A stretch of DNA of 64,000 nucleotides from Escherichia coli (GTDB taxonomy: Bacteria; Pseudomonadota; Gammaproteobacteria; Enterobacterales; Enterobacteriaceae), in NCBI RefSeq assembly GCF_003790525.1, contig NZ_CP033635.1. One strand, given 5' to 3'. A program made the translations under genes and the position numbers. This document shows, piece after piece, positions 4,116 to 60,215 of the stretch. The notes beneath the pieces are model-generated. The model had not been told where the DNA came from. It saw nothing but the letters and a program-made list of their open reading frames with translations, and ran no database searches. Each line of letters begins with the position of its first letter. Positions within the stretch are counted from its first letter, which is position 1.

Positions 4116-4478
4116 TGGTGGAGCTGGCGGGAGTTGAACCCGCGTCCGAAATTCCTACATCCTCGGTACTACATGCTTAGTCAGTCTTTACATTCGCTTG
4201 CCAGCTGCGGACGGACACGCCACTAACAAACTAGCCTGATTAAGTTTTAACGCTTCAACCCCAGGCAGGGCTTCCACGCGATCTCTTTTGGGTTTGACCT
4301 CTCTTGATCCCCGTCCTAAGAGCGGAGGCTAGGGAGAGAGGGCTCTAAGCAGGTTATTAAGCTGCTAAAGCGTAGTTTTCGTCGTTTGCGACTATTTTTT
4401 GCGGCTTTTTACGAGGCCAACCGCCCCTCGGCATGCACCTTGGGTTTCGCAAATCCCGTCGAATCCAGAATCAGCCCC
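4116..4478 (-). ncRNA. ssrA: tmRNA (SsrA), 363 nt
   Basis: Reverse complement reads GGGGCTGATTCTGGATTCGACGGG ... CCAGCTCCACCA and contains the tag reading frame encoding ANDENYALAA; sits downstream of smpB as expected. Confidence 0.95.
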
Positions 4479-6614: not shown

Positions 6615-8276
6615 TTACGCCGCAAGCAGTTCTTTCGCATTCGCCAGTGTGTTACGTGTGACTTCACTGCCACCAAGCAGGCGCGCCAGCTCTTGTAACC
6701 GCGCTTTTTTGTCCAGCGACTCCATATGCGTTTCTGTCATCGCACCATCGGTTTCTTTGCTGACAAAATAGTGTTGATGACCACATCCCGCGACTTGTGG
6801 CAGGTGGGTAACACACATCACCTGAGTTGATTCGCCGAGTTGACGCAGCAGTTTGCCAACAACTGCCGCTGTTGGGCCGCTAATCCCTACATCCACTTCA
6901 TCAAAAATCAGTGCCGGGGTTTCCATTTTACGCGCCGTGATGACCTGAATTGCCAATGCGATGCGTGACAATTCACCACCGGATGCGACTTTGGCAATAG
7001 GCTGCATTGGCTGACCTGGGTTGGTGGTTACCCGAAATTCAATACGATCAGCGCCGTCAGCGCCCAGGTGATGCTCGTCAAATTTAACATCAATCGTAAA
7101 CTGCCCATGCGGCATAGAGAGTGCATGCATACTGTCGGTGATCAGCTGTGCAAGTTCTTCTGCATAGTGCTGGCGTTGCTGGTGTAATGCGTTCGCGGTT
7201 TCCAGTGCCTGCTGATGATGTTTCGTTACCGCCAGCGCGAGCGTTTCTTGTGAGTCGGCCTGATCGTCCAGTTGCTGCTGTTCTTCCAGTAGCGACTGGT
7301 AATACTGTGGCAATGCCTCAGGGCTGACGTGATGTTTACGTGCCAGCGAAATCTGTTTTGAGATGCGCTGTTCAAGTTCAAACAGTCGGTTAGGATCGAG
7401 GTCCAGACGATCGCAGTAGTGGCGCAGTTCATCGCTGGCTTCAGCAATCTGGATGGTAGCTTCTTCCAGCATATCAAGTACGCCGGACAGTTTGCTGTCC
7501 ATGCCAATCAATTCGCTCACCAGTTGTTTAGCCGTGTAAAGCTGACTTTGCAGGTTTGCGTCTTCACCGTCGGCCATTAATGCCAATGCATTCTGGCTGG
7601 TGGTCAGCAATTGACCGCTGTTCGCCAGACGTTTGTACTCTTCGTCGATTTGCTCAAACTCTCCGGGCTGCGGATTAAATTCGTTAAGTTCTTTTAATTG
7701 GTATTGCAGCAGTTCTGCACGGGCGGCGCGTTCCTGACTTAACTGTTGATGATGCGCGAGGTCACGGCAGCTTTGATGCCACAACTGATAACGTGCGGTC
7801 ATTTCCTGGAGTAGAGAGGTTTCATTGGCATAGCCATCAAGCAGGAATTTTTGGTGCTCGGGTTTGGTGAGTAACTGATGAGCGTGCTGACCATGGATCT
7901 GAATCAGCAACTGACCCAGTTCGCGCAGTTGTGAAAGAGGAACCGCTGTACCGTTGATAAAACCACGGGAGCGACCATCGCTGCTGATTACGCGACGAAG
8001 CAAACATTCATGCCCGTCTTCAAGCTGGTTTTCTTCCAGCCAGCGCAGGGCCGCTGGCGTATCTTTCAGAGAAAAACGGGCGCACAGGTCAGCGCGAGCA
8101 GCGCCGGTACGCACCATGTCGGCTTCAGCGCGACCACCGAGACAAAGACCGAGGGCATCTATTGCAATAGATTTACCCGCGCCGGTCTCGCCAGTTATTA
8201 CGGTCATGCCGCTATGAAAATCAATCTCAAGCTCACGAACGATAGCAAAGTTGCTGATGGTCAGTTGTGCCAACAT
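6615..8276 (-). CDS. recN: DNA repair protein RecN
   Basis: 553-aa SMC-like ORF with Walker A (GETGAGKS); LexA boxes upstream. Confidence 0.95.
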
Positions 8277-8284
8277 AGTTGTTT

Positions 8285-8344
8285 TCCTGTATGAAAAACC
8301 ATTACTGTTATTGTGTACAGTATAAACTGGTTTTATATACAGTA
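8285..8344. promoter_or_regulatory. three tandem LexA (SOS) boxes in the recN promoter
   Basis: CTGT-N8-ACAG-type palindromes: TACTGTTATTGTGTACAGTA (8303..8322), AACTGGTTTTATATACAGTA (8325..8344), and a weaker third overlapping 8285..8304. Confidence 0.8.
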
Positions 8345-8361
8345 AAGAGGCTGGCGTGAAA

Positions 8362-9240
8362 TTAGAATAATTTTTTTGACCAGCCGAGCTTGGTGCTTAA
8401 TGTATTGAAATAACTGTAATCTTTCGGATGAATCAGATTCAGATGGTAATCACAGCGACGAATCAGGACATCTTCACCTTCCTGAATCGGCAGTGCTATC
8501 TGGCTGTCGCAACTGATTTCCAGGTCGTTACGGCGATGCGAAAAACGCAGACGGATCGTGCTGCTGCTGTTTATGACCAGTGGTCGTGCTGACAACGTAT
8601 GCGGGAACATGGGCACCAGGGTAATCGCATCCAGAGAGGGTGTGAGAATAGGACCGCCCGCAGAGAGGGAATAGGCGGTGGAGCCTGTTGGCGTCGAAAT
8701 AATCAGTCCATCGGAACGCTGAGAAAACGCAAAGATCTCGTCGATATACACTTCGAACTCAATCATATGCGCCACTTTGCCAGGATGAAGTACCACTTCG
8801 TTAATCGCGGTGCTGATGCGTTTCTGGCAATCTTGCTGACAAACTTGCGCTTCCAGCAAAAAACGTTTCTCGCTGATGTAGTGGCCTTCCAGCACATCGG
8901 CTAATTGTTGCTGGGCGTTATCGGGGTCAAGGTCAGTCAGGAAACCCAGGTTGCCACGGTTGATTCCAATAACTTTAATATCGTAACGGGCGAGTGTGCG
9001 CGCCGCGCCCAGCATATTACCGTCGCCACCAACAACTACCGCGAGATCTGCCAGTTGCCCAATCTCCGCGAGCGTGCCAGTTTTCACATTCTTCAGTTGC
9101 AGTTCGTGAGCGATTTGTTGCTCAACGATGACCTCGTAACCTTTTGCGCACAGCCAGCGGTAGAGCATTTCATGTGTTGTCAGTGCAGTGGGGTGCCGTG
9201 GGTGTCCCACAATGCCAATACACTTGAAATGATTATTCAT
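8362..9240 (-). CDS. nadK: NAD kinase
   Basis: 292-aa ORF with GGDGN motif; divergent from grpE. Confidence 0.95.
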
Positions 9241-9329: not shown

Positions 9330-9953
<624 letters not shown>

Positions 9954-22921: not shown

Positions 22922-22943
22922 AGTGTTGCCTTTTTGTTATCAA

Positions 22944-22972
22944 TAAAAAAGGCCCCCCGATTTGGGAGGCCT
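22944..22972 (-). terminator. pheA attenuator terminator
   Basis: Minus strand reads AGGCCTCCCAAATCGGGGGGCCT followed by a T-run, between pheL and pheA. Confidence 0.75.
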
Positions 22973-23019
22973 TATTGTTCGTCTTCGCATTCTGTTTCAC
23001 ACGACGAAACGCCTCCCAT

Positions 23020-23067
23020 TCAGGGGAAGGTAAAAAAGAATGCGAAGAAAAACGGTGTGTGTTTCAT
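23020..23067 (-). CDS. pheL: pheA leader peptide PheL (15 aa, Phe-rich)
   Basis: Minus strand ATG AAA CAC ACA CCG TTT TTC TTC GCA TTC TTT TTT ACC TTC CCC TGA = [15 protein letters not shown]. Confidence 0.9.
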   Translation of the reverse strand: [15 protein letters not shown]

Positions 23068-23120
23068 GTTTGTTTCCTTAAGTGACTTTAGTACAGTACC
23101 CGTACTGTTTTCACGCTGTC

Positions 23121-26363: not shown

Positions 26364-26424
26364 CCTAAAGAATCAAGACGATCCGGTACGCGTGATTTTC
26401 TTTTCACATTAATCTGGTCAATAA

Positions 26425-26460
26425 CCTTGAATAATTGAGGGATGACCTCATTTAATCTCC
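26425..26460 (+). promoter_or_regulatory. sigma32 heat-shock promoter of clpB
   Basis: CCTTGAATAA ... GACCTCATTTAAT, resembling the sigma32 -35/-10 consensus. Confidence 0.55.
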
Positions 26461-26492
26461 AGTAGCAACTTTGATCCGTTATGGGAGGAGTT

Positions 26493-29066
26493 ATGCGTCT
26501 GGATCGTCTTACTAATAAATTCCAGCTTGCTCTTGCCGATGCCCAATCACTTGCACTCGGGCACGACAACCAATTCATCGAACCACTTCATTTAATGAGC
26601 GCCCTGCTGAATCAGGAAGGGGGTTCGGTTAGTCCTTTATTAACATCCGCTGGCATAAATGCTGGCCAGTTGCGCACAGATATCAATCAGGCATTAAATC
26701 GTTTACCGCAGGTTGAAGGTACTGGTGGTGATGTCCAGCCATCACAGGATCTGGTGCGCGTTCTTAATCTTTGCGACAAGCTGGCGCAAAAACGTGGTGA
26801 TAACTTTATCTCGTCAGAACTGTTCGTTCTGGCGGCACTTGAGTCTCGCGGCACGCTGGCCGACATCCTGAAAGCAGCAGGGGCGACCACCGCCAACATT
26901 ACTCAAGCGATTGAACAAATGCGTGGAGGTGAAAGCGTGAACGATCAAGGTGCTGAAGACCAACGTCAGGCTTTGAAAAAATATACCATCGACCTTACCG
27001 AACGAGCCGAACAGGGTAAACTCGATCCGGTGATTGGTCGTGATGAAGAAATTCGCCGTACCATTCAGGTGCTGCAACGTCGTACTAAAAATAACCCGGT
27101 ACTGATTGGTGAACCAGGCGTCGGTAAGACTGCCATCGTTGAAGGTCTGGCGCAGCGTATTATCAACGGCGAAGTGCCCGAAGGGTTGAAAGGCCGCCGC
27201 GTACTGGCGCTGGATATGGGCGCGCTGGTGGCTGGGGCGAAATATCGCGGTGAGTTTGAAGAACGTTTAAAAGGCGTACTTAACGATCTTGCCAAACAGG
27301 AAGGCAACGTCATCCTGTTTATCGACGAATTACATACCATGGTCGGCGCGGGTAAAGCCGATGGCGCAATGGACGCCGGAAACATGCTGAAACCGGCGCT
27401 GGCGCGTGGTGAATTGCACTGCGTAGGTGCCACGACGCTTGACGAATATCGCCAGTACATCGAAAAAGATGCTGCGCTGGAACGTCGTTTCCAGAAAGTG
27501 TTTGTTGCCGAGCCTTCTGTTGAAGATACGATTGCGATTCTGCGTGGCCTGAAAGAACGTTACGAGCTGCACCACCATGTGCAAATTACTGACCCGGCAA
27601 TTGTTGCAGCGGCGACGTTGTCTCATCGCTACATTGCTGACCGTCAGCTGCCAGATAAAGCCATCGACCTGATCGATGAGGCAGCATCCAGCATTCGTAT
27701 GCAGATTGACTCAAAACCAGAAGAACTCGACCGACTCGATCGCCGTATCATCCAGCTCAAACTGGAACAACAGGCGTTAATGAAAGAGTCTGATGAAGCC
27801 AGTAAAAAACGTCTGGATATGCTCAATGAAGAACTGAGCGACAAAGAACGTCAGTACTCCGAGTTAGAAGAAGAGTGGAAAGCAGAGAAAGCATCGCTTT
27901 CTGGTACGCAGACCATTAAAGCGGAACTGGAACAGGCGAAAATCGCTATTGAACAGGCTCGCCGTGTGGGTGACCTGGCGCGGATGTCTGAACTGCAATA
28001 CGGCAAAATCCCGGAACTGGAAAAGCAACTGGAAGCCGCAACGCAGCTCGAAGGCAAAACTATGCGTCTGTTGCGTAATAAAGTGACCGATGCCGAAATT
28101 GCTGAAGTGCTGGCGCGTTGGACGGGGATTCCGGTTTCTCGCATGATGGAAAGCGAGCGCGAAAAACTGCTGCGTATGGAGCAAGAACTGCACCATCGCG
28201 TTATTGGTCAGAACGAAGCGGTTGATGCGGTATCTAACGCTATTCGTCGTAGCCGTGCGGGGCTGGCGGATCCAAATCGCCCGATTGGTTCATTCCTGTT
28301 CCTCGGCCCAACGGGTGTGGGGAAAACTGAGCTTTGTAAGGCGCTGGCGAACTTTATGTTTGATAGCGACGAGGCGATGGTCCGTATCGATATGTCCGAG
28401 TTTATGGAGAAACACTCGGTGTCTCGTCTGGTTGGTGCGCCTCCGGGATATGTCGGTTATGAAGAAGGTGGCTACCTGACCGAAGCGGTGCGTCGTCGTC
28501 CGTATTCCGTCATCCTGCTGGATGAAGTGGAAAAAGCGCATCCGGATGTCTTCAACATTCTGTTGCAGGTACTGGATGATGGGCGTCTGACTGACGGGCA
28601 GGGGAGAACGGTCGACTTCCGTAATACGGTTGTCATTATGACCTCTAACCTCGGTTCCGATTTGATTCAGGAACGCTTCGGTGAACTGGATTATGCGCAC
28701 ATGAAAGAGCTGGTGCTCGGTGTGGTAAGCCATAACTTCCGTCCGGAATTCATTAACCGTATCGATGAAGTGGTGGTCTTCCATCCGCTGGGTGAACAGC
28801 ACATTGCGTCGATTGCGCAGATTCAGTTGAAACGTCTGTATAAACGTCTGGAAGAACGTGGTTATGAAATCCACATTTCTGACGAGGCGCTGAAACTGCT
28901 GAGCGAGAACGGTTACGATCCGGTCTATGGTGCACGTCCTCTGAAACGTGCAATTCAGCAGCAGATCGAAAACCCGCTGGCACAGCAAATACTGTCTGGT
29001 GAATTGGTTCCGGGTAAAGTGATTCGCCTGGAAGTTAATGAAGACCGGATTGTCGCCGTCCAGTAA
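26493..29066 (+). CDS. clpB: disaggregase chaperone ClpB
   Basis: 857-aa ORF from [35 protein letters not shown]... with two AAA+ modules. Confidence 0.97.
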
Positions 29067-29509: not shown

Positions 29510-31051
<1,542 letters not shown>

Positions 31052-31136
31052 CCTTAAAGAAGCGTACTTTGAAGTGCTCACACAGATTGTCTGATAGAAA
31101 GTGAAAAGCAAGGCGTCTTGCGAAGCAGACTGATAC

Positions 31137-31212
31137 GTCCCCTTCGTCTAGAGGCCCAGGACACCGCCCTTTCACGGCGGTAACAGGGGTTCGAATCCCC
31201 TAGGGGACGCCA
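31137..31212 (+). tRNA. gltW: tRNA-Glu (spacer tRNA)
   Basis: GTCCCCTTCGTCTAGAGGCCCAGGACACCGCCCTTTCACGGCGGTAACAGGGGTTCGAATCCCCTAGGGGACGCCA. Confidence 0.95.
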
Positions 31213-31405
31213 CTTGCTGGTTTGTGAGTGAAAGTCACCTGCCTTAATATCTCAAAACTCATCTTCGGGTGACGTTTGAGATATTTGCTCTTTAAAAATC
31301 TGGATCAAGCTGAAAATTGAAACACTGAACAACGAAAGTTGTTCGTGAGTCTCTCAAATTTTCGCAACACGATGATGAATCGCAAGAAACATCTTCGGGT
31401 TGTGA

Positions 31406-34309
<2,904 letters not shown>

Positions 34310-34401
34310 ACAACGCCGAAGATGTTTTGGCGGAAGAGAGAAGATTTTCAGCCTGATACAGATTAAATCAGAACGCAGAAGCGGTCTGATGAAACAGAAT
34401 T

Positions 34402-34521
34402 TGCCTGGCGGCCGTAGCGCGGTGGTCCCACCTGACCCCATGCCGAACTCAGAAGTGAAACGCCGTAGCGCCGATGGTAGTGTGGGGTCTCCCCATGCGA
34501 GAGTAGGGAACTGCCAGGCAT
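34402..34521 (+). rRNA. rrfG: 5S ribosomal RNA
   Basis: TGCCTGGCGGCCGTAGCGCGGTGGTCCCACCTGACCCCATGCCGAACTCAG ... CTGCCAGGCAT; 120 nt. Confidence 0.97.
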
Positions 34522-45166: not shown

Positions 45167-45268
45167 TTGTTATCTCCTCTGTTTTGGTAGACAGTACCCG
45201 ACACGAAACATTTAAAAAAATGAATGTTTTAATATTCTAAATTCGATATTTTCGATAGGTTTGGGGTT

Positions 45269-51659: not shown

Positions 51660-52615
51660 TGAAGCAACTTTGGTTTGCCATGTCATTAGTGACAGGTAGC
51701 CTGTTATTCTCTGCTAACGCCTCGGCCACTCCCGCGTCCGGGGCGTTATTACAGCAGATGAACCTGGCCAGTCAGTCACTGAATTACGAGCTGTCATTCA
51801 TCAGCATCAATAAACAGGGTGTTGAGTCTCTGCGTTATCGACATGCACGCCTCGATAACCGTCCTCTTGCACAATTGTTGCAAATGGATGGCCCGCGCCG
51901 GGAAGTGGTACAGCGCGGCAATGAGATCAGCTATTTTGAACCGGGACTTGAACCGTTCACGCTTAATGGCGATTACATTGTTGATTCTCTGCCATCGCTC
52001 ATCTATACCGATTTCAAACGCCTTTCTCCTTACTACGACTTTATCTCCGTCGGGCGCACGCGTATTGCTGATCGTCTTTGCGAAGTTATTCGCGTGGTTG
52101 CCCGAGATGGTACACGCTACAGCTACATCGTGTGGATGGACACCGAATCGAAATTACCGATGAGGGTTGATCTCCTTGATCGCGATGGTGAAACGCTGGA
52201 ACAATTTCGCGTGATTGCTTTTAATGTCAATCAGGATATCAGCAGCAGTATGCAGACGCTGGCGAAGGCAAATTTGCCGCCGTTGCTTTCTGTTCCTGTA
52301 GGTGAAAAAGCTAAATTCAGCTGGACGCCAACCTGGTTGCCACAGGGTTTTAGCGAAGTTTCCAGTAGTCGACGTCCGCTACCGACGATGGACAACATGC
52401 CTATTGAATCACGTCTCTATTCCGACGGATTATTCAGCTTCTCGGTAAACGTTAACCGCGCTACGCCATCGAGCACCGATCAGATGTTGCGCACCGGACG
52501 CAGAACCGTCAGTACAAGCGTACGTGATAACGCCGAAATCACCATTGTCGGTGAACTGCCGCCGCAAACGGCGAAACGCATTGCCGAGAATATTAAGTTC
52601 GGGGCAGCGCAATGA
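51659..52615 (+). CDS. rseB: sigmaE regulatory protein RseB
   Basis: 318-aa secreted ORF; operon position. Confidence 0.95.
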   Translation: MKQLWFAMSLVTGSLLFSANASATPASGALLQQMNLASQSLNYELSFISINKQGVESLRYRHARLDNRPLAQLLQMDGPRREVVQRGNEISYFEPGLEPFTLNGDYIVDSLPSLIYTDFKRLSPYYDFISVGRTRIADRLCEVIRVVARDGTRYSYIVWMDTESKLPMRVDLLDRDGETLEQFRVIAFNVNQDISSSMQTLAKANLPPLLSVPVGEKAKFSWTPTWLPQGFSEVSSSRRPLPTMDNMPIESRLYSDGLFSFSVNVNRATPSSTDQMLRTGRRTVSTSVRDNAEITIVGELPPQTAKRIAENIKFGAAQ

Positions 52616-53091
52616 TCAAAGAGTGGGCTACCGTCGTCTCCTGGGAAAACGGGCAGGCGCTGGTTAGTTGTGATGTTAAAGCCTCATGCAGCAGCTGCGC
52701 TTCACGCGCCGGTTGCGGTAGCCGCGTGTTGAATAAACTTGGCCCGCAAACCACGCATACCATTGTCGTACCCTGTGATGAACCGTTAGTGCCGGGGCAA
52801 AAAGTAGAATTAGGAATCGCCGAAGGCAGCCTGCTTAGCTCCGCATTACTGGTTTATATGTCGCCGTTGGTGGGACTATTCCTCATCGCTTCACTATTTC
52901 AGCTACTCTTTGCTTCAGATATTGCAGCATTATGCGGTGCGATTCTCGGTGGCGTTGGTGGATTCCTGATTGCACGTGGCTGCTCTCGAAAGTTTGCTGC
53001 CCGGTCTGAATGGCAACCGATCATCTTAAGCGTGGCCTTGCCGCCTGGCCTTGTGCGATTTGAAACATCTTCGGAAGACGCGAGCCAGTGA
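52612..53091 (+). CDS. rseC: RseC (SoxR-reducing system component)
   Basis: 159-aa membrane ORF with CSSCASRAGC motif. Confidence 0.9.
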   Translation: MIKEWATVVSWENGQALVSCDVKASCSSCASRAGCGSRVLNKLGPQTTHTIVVPCDEPLVPGQKVELGIAEGSLLSSALLVYMSPLVGLFLIASLFQLLFASDIAALCGAILGGVGGFLIARGCSRKFAARSEWQPIILSVALPPGLVRFETSSEDASQ

Positions 53092-53287
53092 TTTCACTGG
53101 CTTTGTTGCATTTTGCATAACAAATGCGAGGACGTTTCCAGATACCCAATCCATACGGTATGAACATTTCCTCGCCTCAATGTTGTAGTGTAGAATGCGG
53201 CGTTTCTATTAATACAGACGTTAAGCTCAGAACAGCGACTTCTAAAAGCCTGGTTAACCGGGCATTAAGGCACAATAATCATACTTT

Positions 53288-55087
<1,800 letters not shown>

Positions 55088-56120: not shown

Positions 56121-56319
56121 GAATTATTTATGAGATAAATCTCCCGTGGCTAACGACATCCCCCGTCGTTGTGTATAGAATATTCCCCCGAAGTTTAAGG
56201 TTGGCACCTCCAGGTTGCCACGGCACACGAAACAGCGTTGGTCCCCATATACCGGTAAACTGAAACTGCAGCGAAGCAGTTAGCAGAACCATGTATATCA
56301 GGTCTGTTTCGTGTGCTGA

Positions 56320-57932
<1,613 letters not shown>

Positions 57933-59795: not shown

Positions 59796-60215
59796 AAAAA
59801 TACCGTTCTCTTTATAAAGTAAAACCCCCGAACTGGTAAGGAACGGGGGTTTTACTTTACAACTTTAATTTTGTGCAGCACACGATTCCAACGGAAATGA
59901 TTATGGATCAATTTAGTTGACCTGTACAAGCAACTTGCAATCTCTGACATAAAAAACGCGAGCCTTTACGAAGAAATCGACATTGATGAAAAGATTAACG
60001 TGACCGCTTTTTGATAAGTACATTAAAATCGGTTTCGTTATTGGCAATTTTGCTGTGCTTTACACCATGCCACTGAATTCCCCCATTGAAACGAGTGGTG
60101 TCGTCAAAGCTCTGGTGTGGAGTGCAGCACTCGATTCCAATAACTCGCACGTTCAGTTTTGGGGTGATGTAAGGGCTAATCTGAACGGCTGCATTCCTTG
60201 TTTAAGGAAAAACGA

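Follow-up and report, generated by a model that had tools for sequence, protein, structure and literature searches.

The SOS-controlled recN promoter of Escherichia coli, with two strong LexA operators and probably a weak third one

Introduction

The literature has described multiple operators for recN since 1987. Rostas, Morton, Picksley and Lloyd (1987, Nucleic Acids Res 15:5041) reportedly characterized the K-12 promoter of recN together with its operators, lists of LexA boxes are said to be given by Fernandez de Henestrosa et al. (2000) and by Courcelle et al. (2001) (cited through PMC10714372 and PMC5999292), and recN reportedly appears with two or three boxes in Rostas et al. (1987) and Courcelle et al. 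(2001). Standard SOS control consists of the occlusion of promoters by operator-bound LexA and its RecA-stimulated self-cleavage (PMC6590174). The gammaproteobacterial LexA operator has the consensus TACTG(TA)5CAGTA, with a 16-bp core CTG-N10-CAG and an A/T-rich centre, and a gene repressed by LexA is customarily expected to have a heterology index (HI) under about 15 (PMC11002266). Most SOS promoters have one operator, with recN, lexA and the colicin genes cited as examples of multiple operators, and the double operator of lexA is reported to add little to its regulation (PMC7440846). For the K-12 recN promoter, three SOS boxes and tight regulation by LexA have been reported (PMC10714372; PMC3323433; PMC7440846). 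The recN gene of Salmonella, which nalidixic acid induces 39-fold, is preceded by three boxes whose distances from the ATG are 8, 26 and 48 bp and whose HI values are 12.97, 7.72 and 8.82, respectively (PMC8072944).

Here, we analyze a window of 64,000 nucleotides, the whole stretch of DNA under study, in which a sequence-only reading had placed three closely packed LexA operators upstream of recN. The three-box recN array is already known, down to its individual bases, and is not a novelty; recN is a textbook SOS gene, and as a discovery the array matters little. Its value is that of a positive control, in which a reader of raw sequence placed the recN operators to the exact base.

Results

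The window comes from the E. coli chromosome in the orientation opposite to the usual K-12 layout. The recN gene (Table 1) encodes a protein with the Walker A motif GETGAGKS near its N terminus and the C-terminal end ...KELLAA, and it is separated from the upstream nadK by a spacer of 85 bp that reads ...cctcTTTACTGTATATAAAACCAGTTTATACTGTACACAATAACAGTAATGGTTTTTCATACAGGAaaacaactATG on the recN strand. Over 801 bp around the operators the window is 100% identical to several complete genomes, SMS-3-5 among these, and the same stretch was matched in 5,425 of 5,426 complete E. coli genomes; for the 60-mer that holds the boxes, 5,357 of 5,425 genomes show an identity of 99% or more. Comparison with the characterized recN operators, a check that the sequence-only reading had itself proposed, revealed that the block is base-for-base identical to that of K-12 MG1655 (NC_000913.3; 60 of 60 positions), with the same promoter hexamers and the same gene order nadK-recN-bamE. 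The operators thus do not differ from those of the K-12 recN promoter, and a 114-bp comparison gave only two differences, both outside the operators: the first lies upstream of the -35 hexamer, the second in the gap that separates the Shine-Dalgarno sequence from the ATG. All variation also fell outside the 60-bp operator block in an alignment of five E. coli strains that comprised the window, K-12 and three strains from across the identity range, including the most divergent strain listed. There is very little doubt that the locus is a LexA-repressed recN promoter.

Two further observations concern the surroundings. The end of RecN, ...AKELLAA (6615-6635), resembles the LAA of the ssrA tag (ANDENYALAA) and fits the reported degradation of RecN by ClpXP; the tag itself is encoded 2 kb from the 3' end of recN by the tmRNA gene. 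All of the Rfam matches in the window are expected for this region of E. coli.

Table 1. Coordinates of the recN operators, promoter elements, neighbouring genes and RNA features in the window
Feature	Position	Strand	Remarks
SOS box 1, promoter-distal LexA operator	8344..8325	(-)	TACTGTATATAAAACCAGTT; ends 48 nt before ATG
SOS box 2	8322..8303	(-)	TACTGTACACAATAACAGTA; perfect CTGT-N8-ACAG; ends 26 nt before ATG
SOS box 3, weak	8304..8285	(-)	TAATGGTTTTTCATACAGGA; ATG-N10-CAG; ends 8 nt before ATG
Candidate -35 hexamer	8346..8341	(-)	TTTACT; consensus scan
Candidate -10 hexamer	8324..8319	(-)	TATACT; consensus scan
Shine-Dalgarno sequence	8288..8285	(-)	AGGA; 8 nt upstream of recN ATG; inside right end of box 3
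recN CDS	6615..8276	(-)	553 aa; ORF list and RefSeq annotation of 100%-identical E. coli genomes
nadK	9240..8362	(-)	Upstream of recN
grpE	9363..9953	(+)	
tmRNA	4116-4478		Rfam match
Phe leader	22943-23068		Rfam match
RyfD	26374-26512		Rfam match
Complete rRNA operon with tRNA-Glu	29510-34519		Rfam match
AsrC	52576-53406		Rfam match
rncO	56190-56404		Rfam match
ohsC	59816-59892		Rfam match

The outer limits of the three 20-mers are exactly 8285-8344. Boxes 1 and 2 lie 22 bp apart from centre to centre and boxes 2 and 3 lie 18 bp apart, the 20-mers of the latter pair having 2 bp in common. The sequence-only reading had described three palindromes of the CTGT-N8-ACAG type within 60 bp, and although all three are present, a strict pattern test gave an exact match for box 2 only, with one mismatch in box 1 and two in box 3, which fits the pattern loosely. 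Compared with CTG-N10-CAG, the hallmark of the gammaproteobacterial operator, boxes 1 and 2 are full matches and box 3 is a partial one, with a single mismatch (ATG in place of CTG). In inverted orientation, box 3 moreover nearly repeats box 1 (84% over 19 nt).

The window was scored with a position weight matrix (PWM) trained on 16 other E. coli LexA sites, recN being excluded, that had been recovered upstream of UV-induced genes in a tiling-array study (PMC3009722, Table 4). Boxes 1, 2 and 3 scored 25.1, 17.6 and 13.4 bits and ranked 1, 2 and 3 of the 63,981 positions in the window, with exact per-position probabilities of ~1e-9, 5e-7 and 6e-6, respectively. Sites of at least 13 bits arose at a mean of 0.26 per window in 100 first-order Markov simulations, none of which (0/100) placed two such sites inside 60 bp. 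The bare CTG-N10-CAG pattern occurs 29 times in the window as opposed to 13.5 expected, and because it is so common the significance of the array rests on the full matrix and the clustering, not on the trinucleotides. Leave-one-out scores of the 16 accepted sites extend from 27.5 to 7.3 bits, and on this scale boxes 1, 2 and 3 rank 5th, 13th and 16th. The sequence-only reading had offered matrix scoring as its test, with two sites of the three under threshold counting against it; box 3 alone proved marginal.

The fourth-best match to the LexA matrix in the window (45177-45196, 12.4 bits, CTCTGTTTTGGTAGACAGTA) is a perfect CTGT-N8-ACAG in the intergenic region from which eamB and yfiE, a gene for a LysR-family regulator, diverge. 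A LysR-type (T-N11-A) box is a likelier assignment for it than a LexA site.

Published data bear unequally on the three boxes. The exact sequences of boxes 1 and 2 are tabled as experimentally verified LexA-binding boxes with HI values of 5.16 and 9.38 (PMC12527982 supplement, Table S3), both under the customary limit of 15, and MEME recovered box 1 upstream of genes induced by UV (PMC3009722). The supplement of PMC12527982 does not list box 3 in its tables of experimentally verified LexA boxes. Direct LexA-binding data for box 3 were not found in the accessible literature, and a text search for its sequence or a published HI returned nothing useful. Its published HI is reportedly about 11.5.

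For comparison across species, 120 recN starts were retrieved with a degenerate DNA pattern for the RecN N terminus from contigs of one genome per species, spanning Enterobacterales, Aeromonadales and a few Alteromonadales. The RecN N terminus is encoded in all 120 loci, and the Walker A motif was reached within the available stretch in 118 of them. Our comparison set comprises the 109 promoters with a scorable box 1, in which a complete CTG-N10-CAG is present at box 1 in 103, at box 2 in 83 and at box 3 in 23; because the species are related, such conservation counts are not independent events. The spacing of boxes 1 and 2 is 22 bp in 100 of the 109 promoters and 20 bp in the other 9, which belong to Aeromonadales. 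At the position of box 3, ATG-N10-CAG is the commonest form (54 promoters), next to the 23 with CTG, 14 with GTG and 4 with TTG, so that xTG-N10-CAG is found in 95 of 109 and is kept in most Enterobacterales, a retention that speaks for box 3. Mean column information amounts to 1.78 bits in box 1 and 1.49 bits in box 2 versus 0.86 bits in the spacer upstream of box 1. In a column profile of 61 species the -10 hexamer is invariant, and so is the -35 hexamer, for which the result is confounded with box 1.

Two groups of species have additional repeats or sites near the promoter. Several Enterobacter species (loci L007, L051, L052 and L091) have a possible fourth weak LexA-like site of 10-12 bits, 71 nt upstream of the recN ATG and just upstream of the -35 hexamer, that is absent from the E. 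coli window. In Xenorhabdus mauleonii (L059, 5245-5318) and X. ehlersii (L021), the recN leader contains tandem units of ~19 bp that are similar to box 3 (ACATGTTTTTATACACAGT-like). Tandem Repeats Finder (TRF) reports these with a period of 19, ~3 copies and 78-83% matches, and inspection by eye gives up to ~7 degenerate copies for L059 and 3 for L021. As LexA sites, most of the copies have poor scores.

We consider box 3 to be probably a working LexA operator. It would be otherwise if only two operators were functional and box 3 were a relic half-site together with the ribosome-binding site and leader, conserved for translation, an account to which we assign a minority share of the probability. 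The scores can be read both ways: an ATG-N10-CAG match of 13.4 bits lies under all of the training sites when those are scored self-included, as befits a relic, but the leave-one-out score of 13.2 bits falls inside the range of the accepted sites, between dinB (13.7) and polB (7.3). Similarly, the median at this position is a low 9.2 bits over the 109 species, but individual scores rise to 18 bits in Erwinia, 23 species have the complete CTG-N10-CAG, and at least 9 bits are reached by 72 of 109 real promoters versus 0.1% of shuffled ones.

The pattern of conservation within the box also bears on the question. Box 3 lacks the C of CTG, which is among the most conserved operator positions, and this counts against it. 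All of the species with the same register (61 of 61) share T and G in its left half and ACAG in its right half, the inner columns being variable. Box 3 lies in the 5' untranslated leader with its CAG half overlapping the Shine-Dalgarno AGGA, the GGA of which is kept in 60 of the 61 species, and because of this overlap part of the conservation may be translational, as the relic account proposes. The invariant TG, however, lies ten bases upstream of the invariant CAG and outside any ribosome-binding site; a LexA box predicts this arrangement, whereas a ribosome-binding site alone does not. Leader RNA structure was rejected as the reason for the conservation, the predicted fold not being significant (z = -0.70; an equally good fold was obtained for 41 of 200 shuffles), and the 3' arm of the predicted U-run/GGAAAAC hairpin varies across species.

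The relic account draws further on the absence of box 3 from the tables of verified boxes and on its Salmonella counterpart, the box nearest the ATG, which was missed by FIMO and added by hand (PMC8072944), and against it stands the practice of the literature, which counts this site as the third box (PMC8072944 for Salmonella; PMC10714372; PMC3323433). It also draws on two natural disruptions. In Cedecea neteri (L080) and Enterobacter sp. Cy-643 (L095), an ERIC/IRU-like element of ~120 bp (…AAGTGACTGGGGTAAGTGAAAGCAGCCAAC…), which in both occupies ~20-140 nt upstream of the recN ATG, has come to lie between box 2 and the right half of box 3, with boxes 1 and 2 left intact at what are now 170 and 148 nt from the ATG. 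The recN promoters of the Aeromonadales have two boxes only. Given these insertions and the two-box Aeromonadales, the third site is not indispensable.

Whether boxes 2 and 3 might work as one coupled unit is a separate question, and from the comparison of promoters we think this rather doubtful. The outer half-sites of the pair (CTGTAT... and ...ATACAG) are almost always kept, and of the inner half-sites now one and now the other is the stronger, depending on the lineage. Enterobacteriaceae have a complete box 2 and ATG-N10-CAG at box 3; Erwiniaceae are the mirror image, with CTG-N10-CAT at box 2 (~10-12 bits) and a complete CTG-N10-CAG at box 3 (12-18 bits); both boxes are complete in a few genera (Rahnella, Mangrovibacter and Entomohabitans). 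The scores of the two boxes are negatively correlated (Spearman -0.41, essentially the product of one clade and without phylogenetic correction), and grouping by pattern shows that Erwiniaceae drive the relationship, which amounts to one or a few evolutionary events, so that we take compensation between the boxes as a hint at most. If the coupled unit were real, the stretch from the -10 hexamer to the ribosome-binding site would be under selection to hold one or more full LexA sites together with a helper half-site, perhaps by way of cooperative binding between adjacent dimers.

Inverted symmetry between the two boxes was also seen. In many Enterobacteriaceae (e.g. L018, L025 and L036), a perfect inverted repeat of 11 bp has one arm in the left half of box 2, CTGTATGAAAA, and the other, 12 nt away, in the right half of box 3, TTTTCATACAG. 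This repeat is lost in E. coli because its box 2 begins CTGTACACAAT. The box 2 of Erwiniaceae (CTGTATGAAAAACCAT) is the reverse complement of the E. coli box 3.

Turning to the promoter itself, the candidate TTTACT/TATACT pair matches the consensus at 9 of 12 positions with a 16-bp spacer, and positions 8000 to 8700 contain no other sigma-70-like match on the recN strand; from the usual distance of 7 nt, transcription would start at about 8312. Box 1 extends over the final four bases of the -35 hexamer and the greater part of the spacer, and box 2 over the final four bases of the -10 hexamer together with the predicted start. The overlap of operators and promoter that the sequence-only reading had described is thereby confirmed for boxes 1 and 2. 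Each of these boxes opens with TACT, the last four bases of a promoter hexamer, which accounts for their 22-bp spacing (a hexamer of 6 bp plus the spacer of 16 bp).

This geometry bears on the proposal that the array serves mainly as a roadblock to read-through from nadK, a housekeeping gene 85 bp upstream, and not in simple promoter occlusion. A repressor bound at box 3, downstream of the predicted start, could act only as a roadblock, and a simple scan of the interval from nadK to recN gave no canonical terminator. On the other hand, occlusion fully accounts for the exact placement of boxes 1 and 2 on the promoter hexamers. There is, moreover, a hairpin at the 3' end of nadK (8385..8349, (-)), with a stem GGCUGGU/GCCAGCC and an inner stem that holds the nadK stop codon, which the simple scan missed because its apical part is long. 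The 96-nt stretch that contains it has a predicted folding energy of -17.5 kcal/mol (z = -3.72), and TCTTT follows directly, running into the recN -35 hexamer. Hairpin and TCTTT together may terminate nadK transcription just before the -35 hexamer, and given the stable hairpin we regard a roadblock to nadK read-through as improbable. As for chance matches in an AT-rich intergenic spacer that bind no protein, for which the frequency of the bare CTG-N10-CAG might speak, this reading carries practically no weight and is refuted by the PWM ranks, with the top three of 63,981 positions all within 60 bp, by the simulations, no window of which held such a cluster, and by the conservation profile, in which conservation of the boxes extends over more than 100 species and the flanking spacer is variable.

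Discussion

Taken together, these data identify the array as the SOS-controlled promoter of E. coli recN, with two strong LexA sites and probably one weak one, a reading that we hold with a probability of roughly 0.93. In undamaged cells, LexA dimers would sit on box 1, and hence on the -35 hexamer and spacer, as well as on box 2, which takes in the -10 hexamer and start. Box 3, from the leader to the ribosome-binding site, is probably occupied by LexA too and may contribute to repression. Together the occupied boxes would exclude RNA polymerase from a near-consensus promoter, and neighbouring LexA dimers at recN may bind cooperatively. Upon DNA damage, RecA filaments formed on single-stranded DNA would stimulate LexA to cleave itself, and the emptied operators would then allow strong transcription of recN.

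Tight SOS repression of recN, a further proposal of the sequence-only reading, finds support in the literature (PMC10714372; PMC3323433; PMC7440846). Induction of recN by UV (PMC3009722), nalidixic acid (PMC8072944) and ciprofloxacin (PMC11002266) has been reported, with ciprofloxacin raising recN mRNA by up to ~4.6 log2 units and RecN protein by up to ~6.8 log2 units (PMC11002266), and recN induction is among the largest in the SOS regulon. Since RecN is also degraded by ClpXP (PMC10714372), its expression is restricted to damaged cells twice over, through transcription and through the protein. The putative occupancy of box 3 and its retention in Enterobacterales bear on the basal leakiness and the induction amplitude of SOS promoters with multiple operators. 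We found no dissection of the recN operators in the literature equivalent to that of lexA.

The closest known counterpart of this promoter outside E. coli is the recN promoter of Salmonella enterica serovar Typhimurium, in which the three boxes lie at the same distances from the ATG and the box nearest the ATG is likewise the weakest (PMC8072944). The Salmonella boxes 2 and 3 differ in sequence from those of E. coli, and the order of the two strong boxes differs as well, with box 2 (HI 7.72) stronger than box 1 (HI 8.82) in Salmonella and box 1 the strongest in E. coli. In contrast to the lexA promoter with its tandem operators and the colicin genes with their overlapping ones (PMC7440846, citing Lloubes et al. 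1991), which have two boxes each, recN combines two strong boxes with a weak third.
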